Below, piece after piece: positions 22,158 to 32,102 of a stretch of DNA of 64,000 nt. The translations under genes were made by a program, and so were the position numbers. The notes under the pieces were generated by a model that did no database searches, was not told the origin of the DNA, and saw only the letters and a program-made list of their open reading frames with translations. The number at the start of each line of letters is the position of its first letter. The stretch's first letter is position 1. The stretch covers positions 61,498 to 125,497 of the forward strand of contig JAEOTA010000085.1 of the NCBI GenBank assembly GCA_016840085.1, read 5' to 3'. This stretch comes from Promethearchaeota archaeon (GTDB taxonomy: Archaea; Asgardarchaeota; Lokiarchaeia; Sigyniarchaeales; SOKP01).

Positions 22158-22589
22158 TTAAATTGGTCTCAAGGGACCAAGTTCTTTAATTTGGTTTGTA
22201 AATTCTGTTATAACTTCAGCAAATCTCTTCCCTTCAGAGGCACTTACCCATTCAAGTCTAAACCTTTTTTCAAGATTGAATATTCTTAGAATTTCTCGAA
22301 AATTTACAAATCTATCTCTTGCAAACTCATTTCCTTTCAAGTAATGACAGTCACCAATATGACATCCAGTTACAATGACTCCATCAATGCCATCTTTAAA
22401 TGCCTCTAAAATAAAAGCTGGGTCTACTCTACCAGAACACATTACACGTACTATTCTAATAGTGGAGGGATATTGAAATCGTGAAACTCCAGCTAAATCT
22501 GCTCCGGCATAACTACACCAGTTACAACAGAAACACAAAATATTTGGATGAAATTCCTTATTTTTTACTTTCTTTTCTTTACTTATCAA
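22158..22589 (-). CDS. mvhD: MvhD/VhuD, Cys form
   Basis: [41 protein letters not shown]. Confidence 0.95.
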   Translation of the reverse strand: MISKEKKVKNKEFHPNILCFCCNWCSYAGADLAGVSRFQYPSTIRIVRVMCSGRVDPAFILEAFKDGIDGVIVTGCHIGDCHYLKGNEFARDRFVNFREILRIFNLEKRFRLEWVSASEGKRFAEVITEFTNQIKELGPLRPI

Positions 22590-22617
22590 TGATAATCATT
22601 TTTTTTTTAATTATATT

Positions 22618-25600
22618 TTAACCTTGAATTAAAAGTGCAGAAATCATAGCGTTGATTTGCTCAAAACCAAAATGCTTAATTAAAATTGTTGAATTAGGGC
22701 ATTGTGCACTGCATGTGCCACAACCTTTACAAAGCGCAGGATTTACATGAGATTTTTTAATAGTAAATGTGATATCTTCAAACACTCGTTCTTCCTCTAT
22801 TAATTCGATAGCATTAAATTGGCAGACTTCCATACAGCTTCCACAGCCAATGCAATTTTCTTCTATTACAACAGCCACAAGCCCAGATGTTACAAGTTTT
22901 TCTGTGCTTAAAATTTTAACTGCTTGAGCAGCAGCTCCATTGGATTGTGCAATTGATTCTCGAAGATCTTTTGGTGAATGTGCACACCCACATAAATATA
23001 TACCATCTGTAGCAAAATCAATTGGTCTCAACTTAACATGAGCTTCCAAAAAGAATTTATCCTCATTAAGTGGAACTTTTAACATTTTTGCTAACTCTTC
23101 ATTTTCTTTTATGGGTGCCACAAGCCCCGTACTTAGCACAAGTAAATCAGGATTTATTTCAAGGTCACCTAAATCTGGATTGTTTACTGTAATTGTTAAC
23201 TTTTTATTTTTAATATTTAATTCTGGAGGCTTAGATTCATCGAATCTAAGAAATATAACTTTATTATCTCGTGCTAAGTTATAGTATTTTTCTTTAAAAC
23301 CATATGTTCGAATATCACGATATAAAATTACTATTTCTATATTAGGGTTGATTTCTTTTGCTTTTAACGCATTTTTAATAGCTTCTGAACAACAGATTCT
23401 GCTACAATAAGGGTGATCTTCATTTCTAGATCCAACGCATTGAATCATTACTATTGAATTCAATCCCTTTATTTTATCCGTAGTAAAAAGATCTTTTTCA
23501 AATTCAGTTTGGGATATAATTCTTTGATCTTGCCCGAAATTATATTCTTTTGGTTGATATTCTTTTGCACCAGTGGCTACAATGATTATCCCATGTTCCA
23601 GATCAACACTTTTGCTATTATTTCCGTAACTTACATTTGTGGAAAAATTCCCTATATATCCTGATATTGTATTGATTTGAGCATTTTTAAATATGTGGAT
23701 TAGTTGATTATCTTTAACTTTTTTAATTAAGTTTTCAATATATTCCTGAATATCATCATTTTCGAGGGTTCGATAAATATTTTTAGCAAGCCCTCCTAGA
23801 GAACCTTCCTTTTCAATTAAGAAAACTTCATAACCTTGAGAAGCTAGATTTAATGCTGCTGACATTCCAGATACACCCCCACCTATAATTAGACCTTTAT
23901 TTATTACGGTGATTTCTTGTTCTTGTAACGGGATTAATTGGCTAGCCTTCGCTACTGACATCCTCAATAAGTCTTTTGATTTTGCTGTTGCTTTTTCAGG
24001 TTCATGCATATGAACCCATGAACATTGATCGCGGATATTCACCATTTCAAAAAGATATTTATTCAAACCGGCCTCTCTTATTGTCGCTTGAAATAAGGAT
24101 TCATGGGTTCTTGGAGTACATGAGGCAACTATAACTCTATTAAGTTGGTTTTCTTCGATTTTTTCTTTAATATTAGTCTGAGTATCTGCTGAACAAGTAT
24201 ATAAATTATGCTCTGCATAGACTACATCAGGTAAAGTTTTAACATATTCAACTACATTAGGAACATCAACAACCCCACCAATATTTATCCCGCAATGACA
24301 AATAAATATTCCAATTCGCGGCGGTTGATCGCTTACATCCAATTCTTCGGGAAGTTCTTTCTTAGAGACTAATTTATTTCTTGCTTCTGATAGAAGAACA
24401 TTTACATATCCAGCAGCAGCACTAGCTTCTATAACTGTTTCTGGAATATCTTTAGGTGTTGCGAAAGCCCCACAAACATAAATCCCAGGTCTTGAAGTTT
24501 CTACTGGGTTAAAAGTTCCAGTTTTACAAAACCCATATTCATTTAACTGGATATTTAATTTCTGTGCTAATTCTTTTGCTTATTGATTAGGTTGCATTCC
24601 TACATAAAGGACGACTAGATTAAAAATTTCTACAATAATTTTTCCATTTCCCGTTTCATAATAAACCTTTAAATCTTTAGAGTCCGGAATTTCTTTAATA
24701 GAAGATATTCTACGTCTGATATATCTTACTCCATACTCATCCTTCGCTCGTTCAATATATTTATCAAAATCTTTACCATATGCCCTGATATCCATTGTAA
24801 AAATAGTTGGTTCTATAATATTCATATGCTCTTTTGCTATTACAGCTTCCTTTGTAGTATACATACAACACACAGAAGAGCAGTAATCAATTCTATGCTT
24901 TCTATCCCTTGAACCTATACAATGTAAAAAGGCTATTTTTTTAGGGATAATTCCATCAGAAGGGCGAATTATTAAACCTGAGTGTGGTCCACTAGCACTG
25001 AGTATACGTTCAAATTCAATACTAGTAATTACATTTAAATGCTTTCCGTAACCAAATTCCGTTAAAGGAGTAGGATCATATTCATCAAATCCAATTGCTA
25101 ATACTACAGCTCCTACATCTAGACTAATTAATTTATCTTGAAGTTCATAATCGATAGCTTTTGCTTTACATATCCCTTTACAAATACCACAACCTATACA
25201 TTTTTCTTTATTAATTGAGAACACTAATGGAACGGCCTGAGGAAATTTTACAGAAATTGCTGCATTGATAGAAAGTCTTTCATTAAAGAAATCTATAGCC
25301 TCTATAGGACATTGTTGAGCACATAAACCGCACCCTGTACATTTAATCTGATCCAAACGAAGTGTTCTTTGAGTTAAATCAACTTTAAAATTACCTGGAA
25401 CACCTTCGATTTTTTCTATTGATGAATTAATTAAAATATCGATATTTTCATGTCGACCAGTTTGTACCAATTTCGGGGCAAGAATACATATTGCACAGTC
25501 ATTAGTTGGAAATGTCTTATCTAATTGAGACATAACGCCTCCAATACTGGTTGTAGATTCTGCAAGATATACTTTATAGCCTGAATCTGCTAAATCTATA

Positions 25601-25659
25601 GAAGTTTGAATACCTGCAATTCCGCCACCAATAACTAAGACAGCTCCGACTTTCTCCAT
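22618..25659 (-). pseudogene. hdrA: Long HdrA-like gene (1013 codons) split by one in-frame TAA at 24580-24582
   Basis: ORFs 24580..25659 and 22618..24342 are in the same frame. The gap translates AKELAQKLNIQLNEYGFCKTGTFNPVETSRPGIYVCGAFATPKDIPETV..., homologous to the paralogs. Confidence 0.85.
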
Positions 25660-26936
25660 TACTTCTCCTCAACAGTTTGATTAGGTTCTATTATATTTAT
25701 AAAATCCACTAAAAACTCTGAAAAATCTAAAATTTCAATAGAAGAAAAATCATCATAGTCTTTTTTTAGACAATTTAAATGCATTCGGCATTTTGGACAT
25801 GATGTAATCATTTTTGTTCCAACAGCTTTAGCTTCTAAAAGACGTTTATATCGCAAAGCTTTAGAACGTTCATTACAATTCATCCAAGAATTTACTCCAC
25901 AACAATAAGAATTTTCTTTATTATGTTCCATTTCTTTAAAATTATAACCAATAGTTTTCAAATGCTTGAAGATTTCTCGGACTTCCTCAATTATCTTATT
26001 ATCCTTTGGTAAAAACCTACTCAACCTGCAAGGGTCATGGTAAGTAAAAGGAATAACCTCATTCGAATTGTTAGGATTTTTAAATTGAACTTTTCCCTGC
26101 TTCCATTTATCAAAAATATATTCAATTATATGTTTAACTTCAAATTTTTTATTAAAATCTTCAAACAATTTTAGATAATCAATTTTAAAGGTTCTATAAC
26201 ACTCAGCACATGCAGTAACAATTGTTGTAGCTCCTGTTTCTTCAAACATTTTTACATTTTTTTTTGCTAATTCAATAAAGCTTTCGAATTTTGCTTGGCC
26301 CCAATATAAATCGTGTCCACAACATATCTCATTTTTTAGAACAACTACCGGATCTTTTTCTAAGTGACAAATAATCTCAAGTGTGCTTTCTGCTATAGAT
26401 AGTGAGTCTTCAAATTCATAATTAAAAAAAGGTAAACATCCCACATAATATAAAATATTTCCCTTATCTGATGTTTTACAACCTTTTGGAATCCAATCTA
26501 AAGGTCTCTCAATTTCCATATTATCTTGACTCATCATTTCTGACATCAAAGGATAAATACCTTTATGAGCAATAGAACGATCAGGATTTTGAATATCTTT
26601 CATACGCATTTTATATCTAGCAATTCTGACAATATCGGCAAAGTTAATATCTTTAGGGCAATGTTGTAGACAACTATTACACATTAAACAATCCCATAAT
26701 ACCTGGCTATTAATAATCTCATCTTCAAAGCCTTCTAATATCATTTGAATAATTCTACTAGGCGTAAATTTTTGTACTTTACTGATTTGGCACACGCCTG
26801 AGCAACGGGCACATTGATAACATTTTTTTAATAAGTTAATTAAATCTGGTTCATATATTTTTTCTATATATAAATTAGATTCATTCTTTTCTTGTTTTAT
26901 CTTTTTAAGTTTTTCTGTCTCAGTTATAGGATTCAC
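25659..26936 (-). CDS. HdrD-like Fe-S oxidoreductase with CCG domains; paralog of 17079..18377
   Basis: CYQCARCSGVC, CLMCNSCLQHCP, EICCGH, YHDPC, YCCG. Confidence 0.9.
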   Translation of the reverse strand: MNPITETEKLKKIKQEKNESNLYIEKIYEPDLINLLKKCYQCARCSGVCQISKVQKFTPSRIIQMILEGFEDEIINSQVLWDCLMCNSCLQHCPKDINFADIVRIARYKMRMKDIQNPDRSIAHKGIYPLMSEMMSQDNMEIERPLDWIPKGCKTSDKGNILYYVGCLPFFNYEFEDSLSIAESTLEIICHLEKDPVVVLKNEICCGHDLYWGQAKFESFIELAKKNVKMFEETGATTIVTACAECYRTFKIDYLKLFEDFNKKFEVKHIIEYIFDKWKQGKVQFKNPNNSNEVIPFTYHDPCRLSRFLPKDNKIIEEVREIFKHLKTIGYNFKEMEHNKENSYCCGVNSWMNCNERSKALRYKRLLEAKAVGTKMITSCPKCRMHLNCLKKDYDDFSSIEILDFSEFLVDFINIIEPNQTVEEK

Positions 26937-26943
26937 TTCCTTA

Positions 26944-28053
26944 TTACAAGTTTTTCATGAATTCATTTCTTCGCTCTATTTTAGCTTCAGAAAATTTGGC
27001 TATTAAGCTTTTCATCTCTTTTTTTGTATTTTCATCAAGTTCTAAACTTTTAATAATATTTTTGTCTAATGCCTTTTGGAGTAACTGCACACCTTTTTCA
27101 GTTCGGGGTAATACAGTAGTATATTTATCTCGGGATCCAAGCCCACCAAACGAAATATCTGAATATATATTGGTAAAATCTATACAAGAATGGCAAGCTG
27201 GGCGTATATAATTAACCAATTTAGTAAAAGGAATATGGATTATCTTTTCTTTTGAGTCATTATCTTCTAGCTTTAGAATTAAATCCTCCTTAATGTTAAT
27301 TTTTACTATATCTTCGAATTTTAACTTAAAATCCTTTTCAAATTTCGCGATTTGAGATTTTTCAAATAGAAAATTGTGATAACAAAATAAGCCTAGAGTA
27401 ATCTCAACATGTTCTGAAGGGGTAACACCTAAATCTTGCATACATTTAATCGTATAAATTTGACAGGGTGTTCCCACAATTGCTAACTTTTTGAATTTAT
27501 AATGACTCAATTGAGGAATTGAGCGTGTGTAGGTGTTAAACTTTTGTATTTCATCTACTTGTGGAGATATATTCAAAATTGTACCAGATGCTTTGATTAG
27601 GTCGTCTTTAGTTTCTGCAAACATTGATTCTCTGGAAAATGGACCTTCAACTTTAGAGACTATTGCCCCATCAATAACTTTAGTTTCTAATAAGAAGTTT
27701 AAAAGTGTATTTACCACACCTCCATCTGTCCCATGTTTTAGAAATTCTTCGTCTGTAGTTTGACAAGAATAGATATCTTCAGCAAATCCATAAGGCATTG
27801 AAGTAAAATCAGTGAATTGGTAAGTCTTATTAAGGTCATCATCTAATACATGTGTTTGAGGACACAGGAAATAACATATACCGCACTCGAGGCATGCATC
27901 CTTATTTATATATTCAGGAGGGGAGTTAGGCTCTTTAAAGCCGATTACATTCTCGAATGCTGCCGAACAGAAAGAAGTACATCCTCCACATTCTTGGCAG
28001 ATCCCCTTTTCATGAACTTCCTTAATTAAATCTTGAAAGGTTTTTATACTCAT
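26944..28053 (-). CDS. Coenzyme F420 hydrogenase/dehydrogenase beta-subunit (FrhB/FdhB) family protein
   Basis: 2x[4Fe-4S] N-terminus; DGGVV; VGTPCQ; GLFC; CHSCIDF...DISFG. Start taken as ATG 28053 (MSIKTF) to avoid overlap with the upstream gene. Confidence 0.88.
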   Translation of the reverse strand: MSIKTFQDLIKEVHEKGICQECGGCTSFCSAAFENVIGFKEPNSPPEYINKDACLECGICYFLCPQTHVLDDDLNKTYQFTDFTSMPYGFAEDIYSCQTTDEEFLKHGTDGGVVNTLLNFLLETKVIDGAIVSKVEGPFSRESMFAETKDDLIKASGTILNISPQVDEIQKFNTYTRSIPQLSHYKFKKLAIVGTPCQIYTIKCMQDLGVTPSEHVEITLGLFCYHNFLFEKSQIAKFEKDFKLKFEDIVKINIKEDLILKLEDNDSKEKIIHIPFTKLVNYIRPACHSCIDFTNIYSDISFGGLGSRDKYTTVLPRTEKGVQLLQKALDKNIIKSLELDENTKKEMKSLIAKFSEAKIERRNEFMKNL

Positions 28054-28069
28054 AATAATACTTTTTACA

Positions 28070-29566
28070 TTATTCCTTTTCCAATTTGATTGGTTTACAA
28101 TTTTTTCTTTTAATACCAGCAATCCTTTCTAATAAGGGTTGCCCAGGTTTAACCGCCTTTAAGCTTTTGGATTCTATAAATCCTGTTTTAATAGCTCCTT
28201 TAAAAATTTCTTCCCCTTTCTTATTTCGAGTGATAACAGAAGACCATCCACTCCCAGAACCAATTGAACCAATTGAGATGTCAGCATAATCTGCTGTTAA
28301 ATCTTCACAATAATGGCAGTTATTGCGAGCATAAGATTTAACATCTTTAAGCGGAACTTTTAAATCTTCTCCGGTATCCAAATATATGATAAATTCACCA
28401 CCACTAATGTCCATCTTTGTTACTTTATTAAAATCTTGGTTAAATTGCTCTTTAATTAATCCAAGGACTCCTTCATAAGGAAAAGATTCCATGCAAAAAA
28501 GTCCTATTTTATATTTTATATTCTTGAAAAAAGGTACTCCACTTGGAAAAAGATTACCCTTTTCAATAGCATTCATCATACATGGAGTACCTACAACAGC
28601 TATATTGTCATATTTCTTGGCTTTATCGATAATAGCTAAAGTAGATGCGTTTGCATATTTAGTTCCCCCCGTCTTATATAGATCTTTCAAATTATCCACG
28701 ATGACGGGTTCAGGCTTCCATTTCTCTTCTGAGTGCTGTACTGCTACAATCGCATCGACTAATTTATTCTTAAGTAAGTATTCAAGTAAAGAAGTAACAA
28801 TCCCCCCATCTTGTCGTACTTTTTTAATATCATCCTTAGTGGTGCTGGCAGAATAGGTATTGATATAACCATTAATTTTTTCTGAAAATTTTAAAGAATT
28901 ATCTCGCTTATTTATACTCTTACCCGCTTGTTCAATTGAAAATGATCTCGGGCAAACAGAATAACATAAACCGCATTTCATACAAGTTTCATCATCGATC
29001 TCTAAAGTATCTGCTGTTACTGTAAGAGCATTTACTGGGCAAATTGATGAGCACCAACCACATTGACAGCATACTTCAGAATCAAACACGATTGAAACAG
29101 GTTCAAAAAAATGTTCAATAAAATCATCAGGTATATCTTTAACTTGATATCTATAGAAAAATTCTTTTTCCTCAATTTCTTTTTCTTCTCCTTTTACTTT
29201 CTTAATAACCTTTTTAATTTTAATCTCTATTTCTTCTTCAATATAACCTTGTTCTTTTAGATAAATTATATCTCGTATTACATTTTCTGGTGGAAAATTG
29301 TCTATAATTTTCACAATTTCTTCCAGAAATAATAGTTCTTTACCTTTTAGTTCTTCTAATACTAACTTGCGTTCTGTTTCGGCATCAACCATAGCATCTA
29401 AAATCTGATAAAATTCTTCCTCTGAATATTTTCCTGCTCCTAAGATTTCTTCTTTTGCTTCAAAAAAAGCACGAACCTGAAAATTTTCTGCCGCTTTATG
29501 TGTTGCTTCCATTAATAATTTAGGGGATATCCCATTAAAGGTTATATCTTTTTCTATTTGAACCAT
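28070..29566 (-). CDS. FrhB/FdhB family protein with ~155-aa N-terminal extension
   Basis: CCQCGWCSSICP, CMKCGLCYSVCP, QDGGIVT, GTKY, VGTPC, GLFCME, CHYCEDLT.DYADISIG. Confidence 0.9.
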   Translation of the reverse strand: MVQIEKDITFNGISPKLLMEATHKAAENFQVRAFFEAKEEILGAGKYSEEEFYQILDAMVDAETERKLVLEELKGKELLFLEEIVKIIDNFPPENVIRDIIYLKEQGYIEEEIEIKIKKVIKKVKGEEKEIEEKEFFYRYQVKDIPDDFIEHFFEPVSIVFDSEVCCQCGWCSSICPVNALTVTADTLEIDDETCMKCGLCYSVCPRSFSIEQAGKSINKRDNSLKFSEKINGYINTYSASTTKDDIKKVRQDGGIVTSLLEYLLKNKLVDAIVAVQHSEEKWKPEPVIVDNLKDLYKTGGTKYANASTLAIIDKAKKYDNIAVVGTPCMMNAIEKGNLFPSGVPFFKNIKYKIGLFCMESFPYEGVLGLIKEQFNQDFNKVTKMDISGGEFIIYLDTGEDLKVPLKDVKSYARNNCHYCEDLTADYADISIGSIGSGSGWSSVITRNKKGEEIFKGAIKTGFIESKSLKAVKPGQPLLERIAGIKRKNCKPIKLEKE

Positions 29567-29618
29567 AATTCTTATTTAATTTATTTTTTATTCAAAAAAA
29601 TTAATTTAATATTTTAAA

Positions 29619-29686
29619 ACCCCTTCCCTTGCGAGGAGAATCTTCTTATAACTAATATTTTTTTATAAGAATCATTCCAAAGGGGT
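29619..29686 (-). promoter_or_regulatory. Eukaryote-like SECIS element (cis-acting RNA hairpin)
   Basis: Minus strand: ACCCCUU-U-GGA-AUGA-UUCUUAUAA-[AAAAAUAUUAG]-UUAUAAGAA-GA-UUCUCCUCGCAAGGG-AAGGGGU. AUGA/GA core, perfect 9-bp upper stem (29671-29663 with 29651-29643), A-run at the 5' side of the loop, 7-bp lower helix (29686-29680 with 29625-29619). Lies immediately after two TGA-containing genes. Confidence 0.85.
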
Positions 29687-30133
29687 AGTTAAGAGTTCCT
29701 TCATTTCAACTTCTGCTTCTTCTTCACCGATGTTAAGAGGACTTGGCCCTATTCTGCGAATTTTTTCAAAGGAATCTTCAACGCTTTTTACTAATTTTTC
29801 TGATTCTGCACTTGAGCACCAGTACATATTAATCCGCTCACTTCCAAATCCTCGTCTATCAAGAATTCTTTTAGCAAAGTCTATGTGTTTTGAGGCTGTA
29901 AAATTACCTTCTTTAAATTGACATTCATTTTCACGTCATCCAACAACCATGACGCCGTCAGCTCCGCTTTTTATAGCATATAATATATGCTTTACGTCAA
30001 CTCGTCCTGTACACCTTACTTTAATGATCTTTACTGAGGGTGTATATTTTAAACGGGAAACTCCAGCTAAATCCGCTGCTCCATAGCCTCATTTTAAACA
30101 AGCAAACATTATTATCTTATAACTATTTTCCAC
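29672..30133 (-). CDS. mvhD: Selenocysteine-containing MvhD/VhuD (153 aa; U15, U66)
   Basis: GTG start after [34 protein letters not shown]...VRCTGRVD...VMVVG-U-RENECQF. TGA at 30091-30089 and 29938-29936 align with Cys of CNWC and GCHIGDC in the paralogs. Missed by the ORF track. Confidence 0.93.
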
Positions 30134-30155
30134 CTTTTTTCAACCTCCTCTAAGT

Positions 30156-32102
30156 TTAAGTCTCTAATAATGCAGAGATCTCCGAATATAGTTGATCATC
30201 TCGGAAATATTTAATATCTATAGCTTCTGTAGGACAACAACTAGCACATATACCACAGCCATCGCAGTTTAGATCATCAACAATAGCACTTTCTGCCTCC
30301 TCATCAATAATAATCGCGTTCTTTGGACATTCCTTTTCACATCTTCTGCAGGATATACAAAAATCCTTGTTGACTTCTGCAATTATAAGTTCAAGATCAA
30401 TCTCTCCAGCAGATGTTAATTCAGCTACTTTACTGGCAGCTGCTCTGGCTTGTGAAACAGAATATGCTATATTTTTTGGACCTTGAGCAAATCCAGCAAT
30501 AAAAATACCTCTGGTCTTAGTTTCTTGGGGCATCAATCCAAAATGAGATTCTGTAAGAAAGCCATTTCGATCTATGTCCAAATTCAAAATTTTCGCAATT
30601 TGTTGTGTTCCTTCTGAGGGTAAAGCAGCACTTGATAAAACAACTAAATCAGCATCAATTATTACAATCTTATCTGTTAATGTTGAATAAACCCGAACTT
30701 TCGCTTTTTTGGTCTCAGGATCTTCAGTGATCTCGCCAACTTTTCCTCGAATCATTCTAATCCCCGCATCTTTCGCCTTCTCATAATACTCTTCGAAACC
30801 TTTTTCGTTTGTTCTGATATCTATATAACAAATTGTGATACTTGCATCAGGAAATTCTTCTAAAAGTAATTGTCCATTCTTAAGAGCTAACATGCAACAA
30901 ACACCGCTACAATATGGTCTGTCAGTTTCTCTAGATCCGACGCACTGAATAAACACAATTTCTTTTGGTTTTTTATCATCCGAAATTCGATGTACATGTC
31001 CTTCTAATGGTCCATTAGGAGCTAAAATTCTCTCAAGTTGAGCTTGAGTAATTACATTTTCAAATTCACCATAACCATATTCCCCAAAAGGTTCATAGAT
31101 ATCCCATCCAGTGGCGATAATTATTGTACCGACATCAAAATTAACTTCTTTTGGAACTTGGCTAAAGTCTATGGCATCTAATTCACATGCATCAACACAA
31201 GAAAAACATTCAACACACACATCTCTATTGATATCATAAATAAAGGGTACTGCTTGTCCAAATGCTATATCAATCGCTTTTCGAGCACCCAAATATGCAT
31301 CAAAATAGTTGGTTATATAAGTTGGACAGACTTCTGTACAAGCTCCACAACCATTACATAATTTAGGATCAACGAATCGCGGTTTCATCTCAACAGTAAC
31401 ATTATACTTTCCTACATTTCCTGTAATTTCCTTTACTTCAGTATAACTTAAAATCTCAATATTTTCATTCCGATTAACCTCCAACATCTTTGGACCACAA
31501 ATTCATATAGCACAATCATTTGTAGGGAATGTTCTATCTAGTTGAGCCATTCTCCCTCCTATAGTAGTATTTTTTTCTACTAAATATACTTTAATTCCTT
31601 GATTGGCGAGATCGAGAGCAGCATTCATACCTGCAATTCCACCTCCTACTACTAATGTAGCTTTTGTAACTGGTACTGTTTTTATAGGTATAACTTCTAA
31701 TCGCTTTGCCCTCTCAATACCAGCTTTCACTAAAATTTTCGCCTTTTCTAGAGCCTCTTCTTTACTTTCAGTACACCAACTACAATGTTCCCTCACATTT
31801 ACCATTTGAAAATAGTAAGGGCTTAAACCTGCTTTTGCTAGTGAATCTCGATAAATTGGTTCGTGAGTTCTTGGAGTTCAAGCACTTGCAACAATTCGAT
31901 TTAAATTCTTTTCTTTAATATCTTCTATTATTTCATTCTGTGCGGCATCAGTACATAGAAAAGCATTTTTCTTTGAAATTATTATACTTTCGTCAAGATC
32001 TTTTACATACTCTACTAATTTATTGCAATCGACTTTGCTATTAATATTTATGCCTCAGTGACATGCATAGAATCCAATCCTATGATTTTGGTTATTATTC
32101 AT
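30156..32102 (-). CDS. hdrA: Selenocysteine-containing heterodisulfide reductase subunit A (648 aa; U16, U75, U200)
   Basis: ATG 32102; RIGFYACH-U-GINI (TGA 32057-32055); RIVASA-U-TPRTHE (TGA 31880-31878); TFPTNDCAI-U-ICGPKM (TGA 31505-31503). One frame through to TAA 30158-30156, joining ORFs 31503..31805 and 30156..31487. Confidence 0.95.

Follow-up and report, generated by a model that had tools for sequence, protein, structure and literature searches.

Can a UGA end a protein when it forms part of the very element by which other UGAs are read as Sec, and is such an overlap a device or a by-product? The question is raised by the mvhD gene of a Promethearchaeota archaeon, whose last codon lies in the core of a SECIS element. 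On the minus strand of the window (the whole 64,000-nucleotide stretch of DNA analysed here) the 3' end of mvhD reads ACT ACC CCT TTG GAA TGA TTC TTA TAA. As an earlier sequence-only reading had pointed out, and as the sequence and its translation bear out, the terminal UGA (29674-29672) is also the UGA of the AUGA core, a TAA follows in frame (29665-29663, positions 7-9 of the upper stem), and readthrough would add U-F-L.

mvhD, or vhuD (29672-30133, minus strand), encodes 153 aa from a GTG start and matches the Pfam FlpD model in a profile search (E 6e-44). Translation with TGA as U gives it two Sec codons, U15 (30091-30089) and U66 (29938-29936), both of which align to Cys of a paralogue at 22158-22589; the alignment of the two proteins ends near residue 130, some 20 codons short of the terminal UGA. 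hdrA (30156-32102, minus strand; 648 aa) has three in-frame UGAs by the same translation (U16 at 32057, U75 at 31880, U200 at 31505), ends on TAA, carries no SECIS of its own, and matches the HdrA2 model with an E value of 3e-231, under the model's curated cut-off. Downstream of the SECIS, ORF and profile searches place an frhB-like gene (28070-29566, minus strand) with no in-frame UGA and a TAA stop. Sec-type and Cys-type hdrA/mvhD paralogues lie together in one cluster of the window (22158-32102, minus strand), and all seven genes checked there besides Sec mvhD end on TAA. The nearest mvhD orthologues come from genomes mostly labelled Promethearchaeota.

Profile searches of the host genome recovered SecS and two SelD above cut-off, both SelD containing UGA, and an EFSec candidate just below it (235.6 bits against 242.25). 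No tRNA-Sec turned up in the host assembly with ARAGORN, with the Rfam tRNA-Sec model, or in two ad hoc scans; the published Loki tRNA-Sec contains an intron, so this failed search is not evidence of absence.

The SECIS spans 29686-29619 on the minus strand (68 nt) and combines AUGA, a 9-bp stem, an 11-nt loop, and GA. The 5' arm of its lower helix, ACCCCUU (29680-29686), lies inside the coding sequence, where it encodes T-P-L, and pairs with the 3' arm AAGGGGU (29619-29625). The 5' side of the core, AUGA (29672-29675), is followed by the upper stem and loop (29643-29671), whose arms UUCUUAUAA (29671-29663) and UUAUAAGAA (29651-29643) enclose the loop AAAAAUAUUAG. The 3' side of the core is GA (29641-29642), where tandem G.A pairs are expected, and a side hairpin, CCU-CGCAA-GGG (29626-29636), lies between the GA and the lower helix. 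The 68 nt fold at -19.6 kcal/mol (z -2.69), and none of 200 shuffles did as well; with flanks included, z is just -0.95 and -1.28. A loose SECIS pattern matches twice in the window against 0.51 expected, which is not significant alone. The strict 9-bp/11-nt pattern matches nine times in the 4.7-Mb genome, seven times after an ORF with an in-frame UGA, and its one match in the window is the mvhD element. No Rfam family matched within the window, and a scan for bacterial-type promoters and terminators found nothing; only 17 of 92 orthologues have a stretch of at least six T after the element, and a terminator downstream of it is not claimed.

Whether the hairpin is real was judged from mvhD loci of at least 60% identity, which number 96, 92 of them with a scoreable element. 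In an unfitted alignment of 69 orthologues, 88.8% of cells are paired and two-sided changes occur at 15 of 18 pairs (8 of 9 in the upper helix, 5 of 6 in the lower helix), while registers slid along the same alignment give 44-57% pairing. None of 500 shuffles matched these values; the orthologues are kin, so that the counts are not independent and the shuffle count is not a probability. The AUGA is invariant in all 69. On the tree several stem pairs change repeatedly with pairing kept, up to 12 times at position 6. The loop is 11 nt long in 87 of the 92 orthologues, and in all 87 its positions 3-5 (AAA) and 11 (G) are invariant. RNAalifold, run on the unfitted alignment, recovers only the upper stem, since the register of the lower part is not constant; support for the lower helix and for the side hairpin comes from the pairing and covariation counts together with constrained folding. 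Covariation of both helices, which the sequence-only reading had proposed as its check, is thus found, and a chance hairpin is rejected, as covariation exceeds both shuffles and slid registers. Omitted from the counts are four basal loci, L104-L107 (genomes G044, G027, G033, and G007), whose divergent element is not scored by the strict pattern; these genes have a TGA stop directly before ATGA and a longer element that does not fit the 9-bp/11-nt form.

The text of Mariotti et al. (2016, PMC4989117) defines the lokiSECIS by AUGA, a 9-bp stem, an 11-nt loop with adenines first and (A)G last, and GA or AA. The mvhD element has AUGA, the 9-bp stem and 11-nt loop, an A-rich loop start with a final G, and GA; it is also a single element at the 3' end of hdrA-mvhD, with the UGAs at conserved Cys positions. 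Comparative sequence analysis confirms the hairpin as a genuine and typical lokiSECIS of type I. Its roles in directing Sec insertion and, through a kink-turn-like core, in binding a protein are putative.

The position of the stop relative to this RNA is far less constant. Of the 92 orthologues, 66 (72%) end mvhD on the core UGA, and the other 26 on a stop 4-19 nt upstream. The sequence-only reading had looked for conservation of the overlap and had counted orthologues that stop elsewhere as evidence against itself; the first holds for the 66 and the second for the 26. With the RNA fixed, stops occur 0, 4, 5, 7, or 16-19 nt before the core (within 7 nt in 81 of 92), and these offsets changed at least 14 times on the tree. 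Switches between core and upstream stops number at least nine on a tree built without the mvhD tail and without the element, and one upstream-stop gene is nested in a well-supported clade of core-stop genes. Six further orthologues end on a UGA other than that of the core. Outside the orthologues, the core supplies the stop in 5 of 40 paralogous Sec-mvhD genes against 7 of 7 vhuU-like genes (peptides of about 50 aa with the motif CYDCULSC, identified by eye and not by profile); in the host genome it does so for just one of seven elements. Three lokiSECIS-bearing mvhD paralogues (L181, L207, and L210) have one in-frame UGA only. The overlap is therefore common but optional, and is the majority state in one clade of mvhD orthologues. 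Some selection for it may have acted, as 72% of orthologues together with 7 of 7 vhuU-like genes is above what pure drift might give.

If the overlap had been selected to discriminate stop from Sec, the core UGA would guarantee termination and the TAA would serve as a fail-safe, as the sequence-only reading had suggested in calling the TAA a backup. The frequency of the overlap in the orthologues and vhuU-like genes agrees with this idea, as does a next TAA or TAG within three codons in 60 of the 66 core-stop orthologues. The stem TAA, however, is as common where it is out of frame: it occurs in 54 of 66 core-stop orthologues, where it is in frame, and in 24 of 26 upstream-stop orthologues (Fisher p=0.33). 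Independent pairs on the tree gave no association between TAA and core stop, the pairs being too few to decide. Stem position 8 is A-U in 91 of 92 orthologues whatever the frame. The TAA is absent from 12 core-stop genes of other lineages (seven vhuU-like and five paralogous mvhD), in which the next TAA or TAG lies 13-80 codons on, and five orthologues have extensions of 21-32 codons. Genes with an upstream TAA or TAG stop need no such device, yet they arise repeatedly, and the six orthologues that end on a non-core UGA also speak against it. A discrimination device is accordingly improbable, and a selected backup stop is rejected, TAA frequency being independent of frame; judged from these alignments, the TAA is stem consensus that is in frame by happenstance.

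The core UGA could instead be a third Sec codon of mvhD, the protein then ending in U-F-L as do eukaryotic selenoproteins with a C-terminal Sec. Most core-stop orthologues do have a short tail after the UGA (FL, IL, or VL), but the residues of this tail are set by the stem sequence, and a SECIS cannot stay folded during decoding of its own core. As the paralogue has no Cys counterpart and the tree shows several losses of the codon at the least, C-terminal Sec in MvhD is rejected as extremely improbable. That the core UGA is a genuine stop is almost certain, in agreement with the sequence-only reading, which held that it cannot be recoded by its own hairpin; this reasoning already stands in the text of PMC4989117.

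That reading went further, to the idea that terminating ribosomes melt the SECIS and so exert negative feedback on Sec insertion in hdrA-mvhD. The geometry is in its favour: with the core UGA in the A site of the ribosome, part of the upper stem must be single-stranded, and a stop within 7 nt of the core in 81 of 92 orthologues would make such transient melting a frequent event. The core would, however, be melted just as well by stops 4-7 nt upstream, and the overlap was gained or lost at least nine times. The same element occurs with the stop 16-19 nt upstream in 11 orthologues, or 16-25 nt upstream if many paralogues are counted. Local hairpins refold fast relative to the interval between ribosomes, and no sequence feature points to regulation. 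Feedback regulation finds no support here and is very doubtful, more so than a discrimination device.

The account that probably holds is a simpler one, in which a type I lokiSECIS of the ordinary kind acts for all five Sec codons of hdrA and mvhD, two cistrons that would be co-transcribed. The element would recruit the Sec machinery for upstream UGAs, which lie 264 to about 2380 nt before the core. The nearest Sec codon stands 264 nt from the core at this locus; orthologues have it at 236-284 nt and vhuU-like genes at 84 nt. A UGA within the SECIS or adjacent to it would not be recoded, as placing it in the A site unwinds the hairpin, and the core UGA would terminate because the ribosome arriving there has unwound that hairpin. 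The core UGA, fixed by the RNA, would then be a free stop. The loosely constrained tail of mvhD may lengthen or shift frame by drift, ending on an upstream stop or, once earlier stops are lost, no further on than the core UGA. The overlap would thus reflect compaction of the genome within limits set by the RNA, and would not be a control device.

Stop usage in the two genes is in keeping with this account. Across 93 loci hdrA ends on TAA (77) or TAG (16) and never on TGA, with 13 changes between TAA and TAG, whereas TGA closes 72 of 96 mvhD genes and 13.5% of long ORFs in the host genome; the pattern fits a SECIS that would recode UGAs far away but not those close by. In the 92 orthologues and in 49 other elements no frame extends beyond the core, while 37% of frameshifts simulated in the last 20 codons would pass it. 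For 9-13 independent events the chance of finding no frame past the core is roughly P 0.016-0.003. This is modest evidence that the AUGA core may be a 3' limit for translation; longer tails might also be unfavourable to the protein itself.

The side hairpin, which the sequence-only reading had overlooked, adds a structural feature to the element. In the alignment of 69 orthologues 93% of its cells are paired, with 16 two-sided changes at one of its pairs. Of 136 distinct elements, drawn from several gene families, 123 adopt a three-way junction under constrained folding; the proportion is 20% when the 3' part is shuffled and 64% under a stricter control. In the present copy the extended lower helix is preferred over the side hairpin. 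The hairpin is present in mvhD and vhuU-like elements and, by eye, after both selD genes. The lokiSECIS probably forms a three-way junction by means of the side hairpin. The two statements taken alone, that the Lokiarchaeial SECIS is a three-way junction and that translation has a hard 3' boundary at AUGA, are jointly somewhat favoured. It is unlikely, by comparison, that a junction of lower helix, kink-turn-like core with upper stem, and side hairpin is combined with a selected AUGA boundary such that termination and folding are coupled, which could tune Sec over two cistrons.

Other candidate selenoprotein genes were seen outside the window. An ORF at G000:C19:107100-107660 (plus strand) has two adjacent UGAs (...DSGC-U-U-EKVR...) and a lokiSECIS 11 nt after its TAA, and falls outside the seven Asgard selenoprotein families given in the text of PMC11227280; locus L239 has a similar tandem-UGA gene (HAD-U-U-ADV). 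At G000:C82:24190-24500 (plus strand) a lokiSECIS follows a small ORF whose product, with a hydrophobic segment and the sequence DTQ-U-PSAC, is a candidate small membrane selenoprotein. L175/L176 (G000:C78:5990-8158) form a tandem pair of Sec-containing selD genes, each followed by its own type II-like element; in both, a core-like (A)TGA stands after a GATG lower arm.

Much of this arrangement is known. The text of PMC4989117 describes one lokiSECIS after VhuD, common to the HdrA-VhuD tandem of Lokiarchaeota, in which HdrA always ends on UAA or UAG; the present locus shares the motif, the single element after vhuD, a multi-Sec HdrA with such a stop, and the overlap with coding sequence. The same text states that many lokiSECIS genes end on UGA and that a nearby SECIS cannot act on those stops. 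Its Discussion reports that the AUGA motif of VhuU.1 doubles as a stop codon, repeated in the Methods of PMC11227280, and Huang et al. (2024, PMC11227280) write that the AUGA motif frequently overlaps with UGA stops. The overlap, for VhuU.1, and the argument against recoding were thus already in print in 2016; overlap and reasoning are identical here, and the mvhD case is a clean new example in another gene family, the text of PMC4989117 naming an AUGA stop for VhuU.1 only. The vhuU-like genes found here differ in having no in-frame TAA in the stem. Two things are added to the published picture: the probable three-way junction, and a census of stop positions that would strengthen the rule by which an Asgard SECIS recodes UGAs at a distance but leaves close ones alone. 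The main texts of PMC4989117 and PMC11227280 contain no description of the side hairpin, and a literature search for a SECIS three-way junction or minimal spacing returned nothing relevant.

The type I eSECIS-like model, the main form for hdrA and frhD in the text of PMC11227280, shares with the mvhD element a GA/[G/A]A core, an upper stem of 7-15 bp, and a loop of 8-20 nt. It differs in having an internal loop and lower stem for which that text reports no conserved nucleotides, where the present element has a covarying hairpin on its 3' side. If this hairpin is real, it belongs in SECIS search models and in any search for the Asgard SECIS-binding protein; SBP2 is absent from Asgard archaea according to the text of PMC11227280. 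In gene calling and selenoprotein prediction the core UGA should count as a stop, and natural variants with the stop 0, 5, or 17 nt before the core are a ready series for gauging the distance rule. The methanococcal SECIS, with a GAA/A bulge, then two to three G-C pairs and a loop of 4-8 nt (PMC9622424), is unlike the AU-rich 9-bp stem and 11-nt loop found here. Eukaryotic type I SECIS share with the mvhD element the AUGA/GA core, apical adenines, downstream position, and minimal-distance behaviour, whereas the mvhD element has a shorter stem, overlaps coding sequence, and serves two cistrons; the Asgard SECIS is the closest prokaryotic relative of the eukaryotic one.
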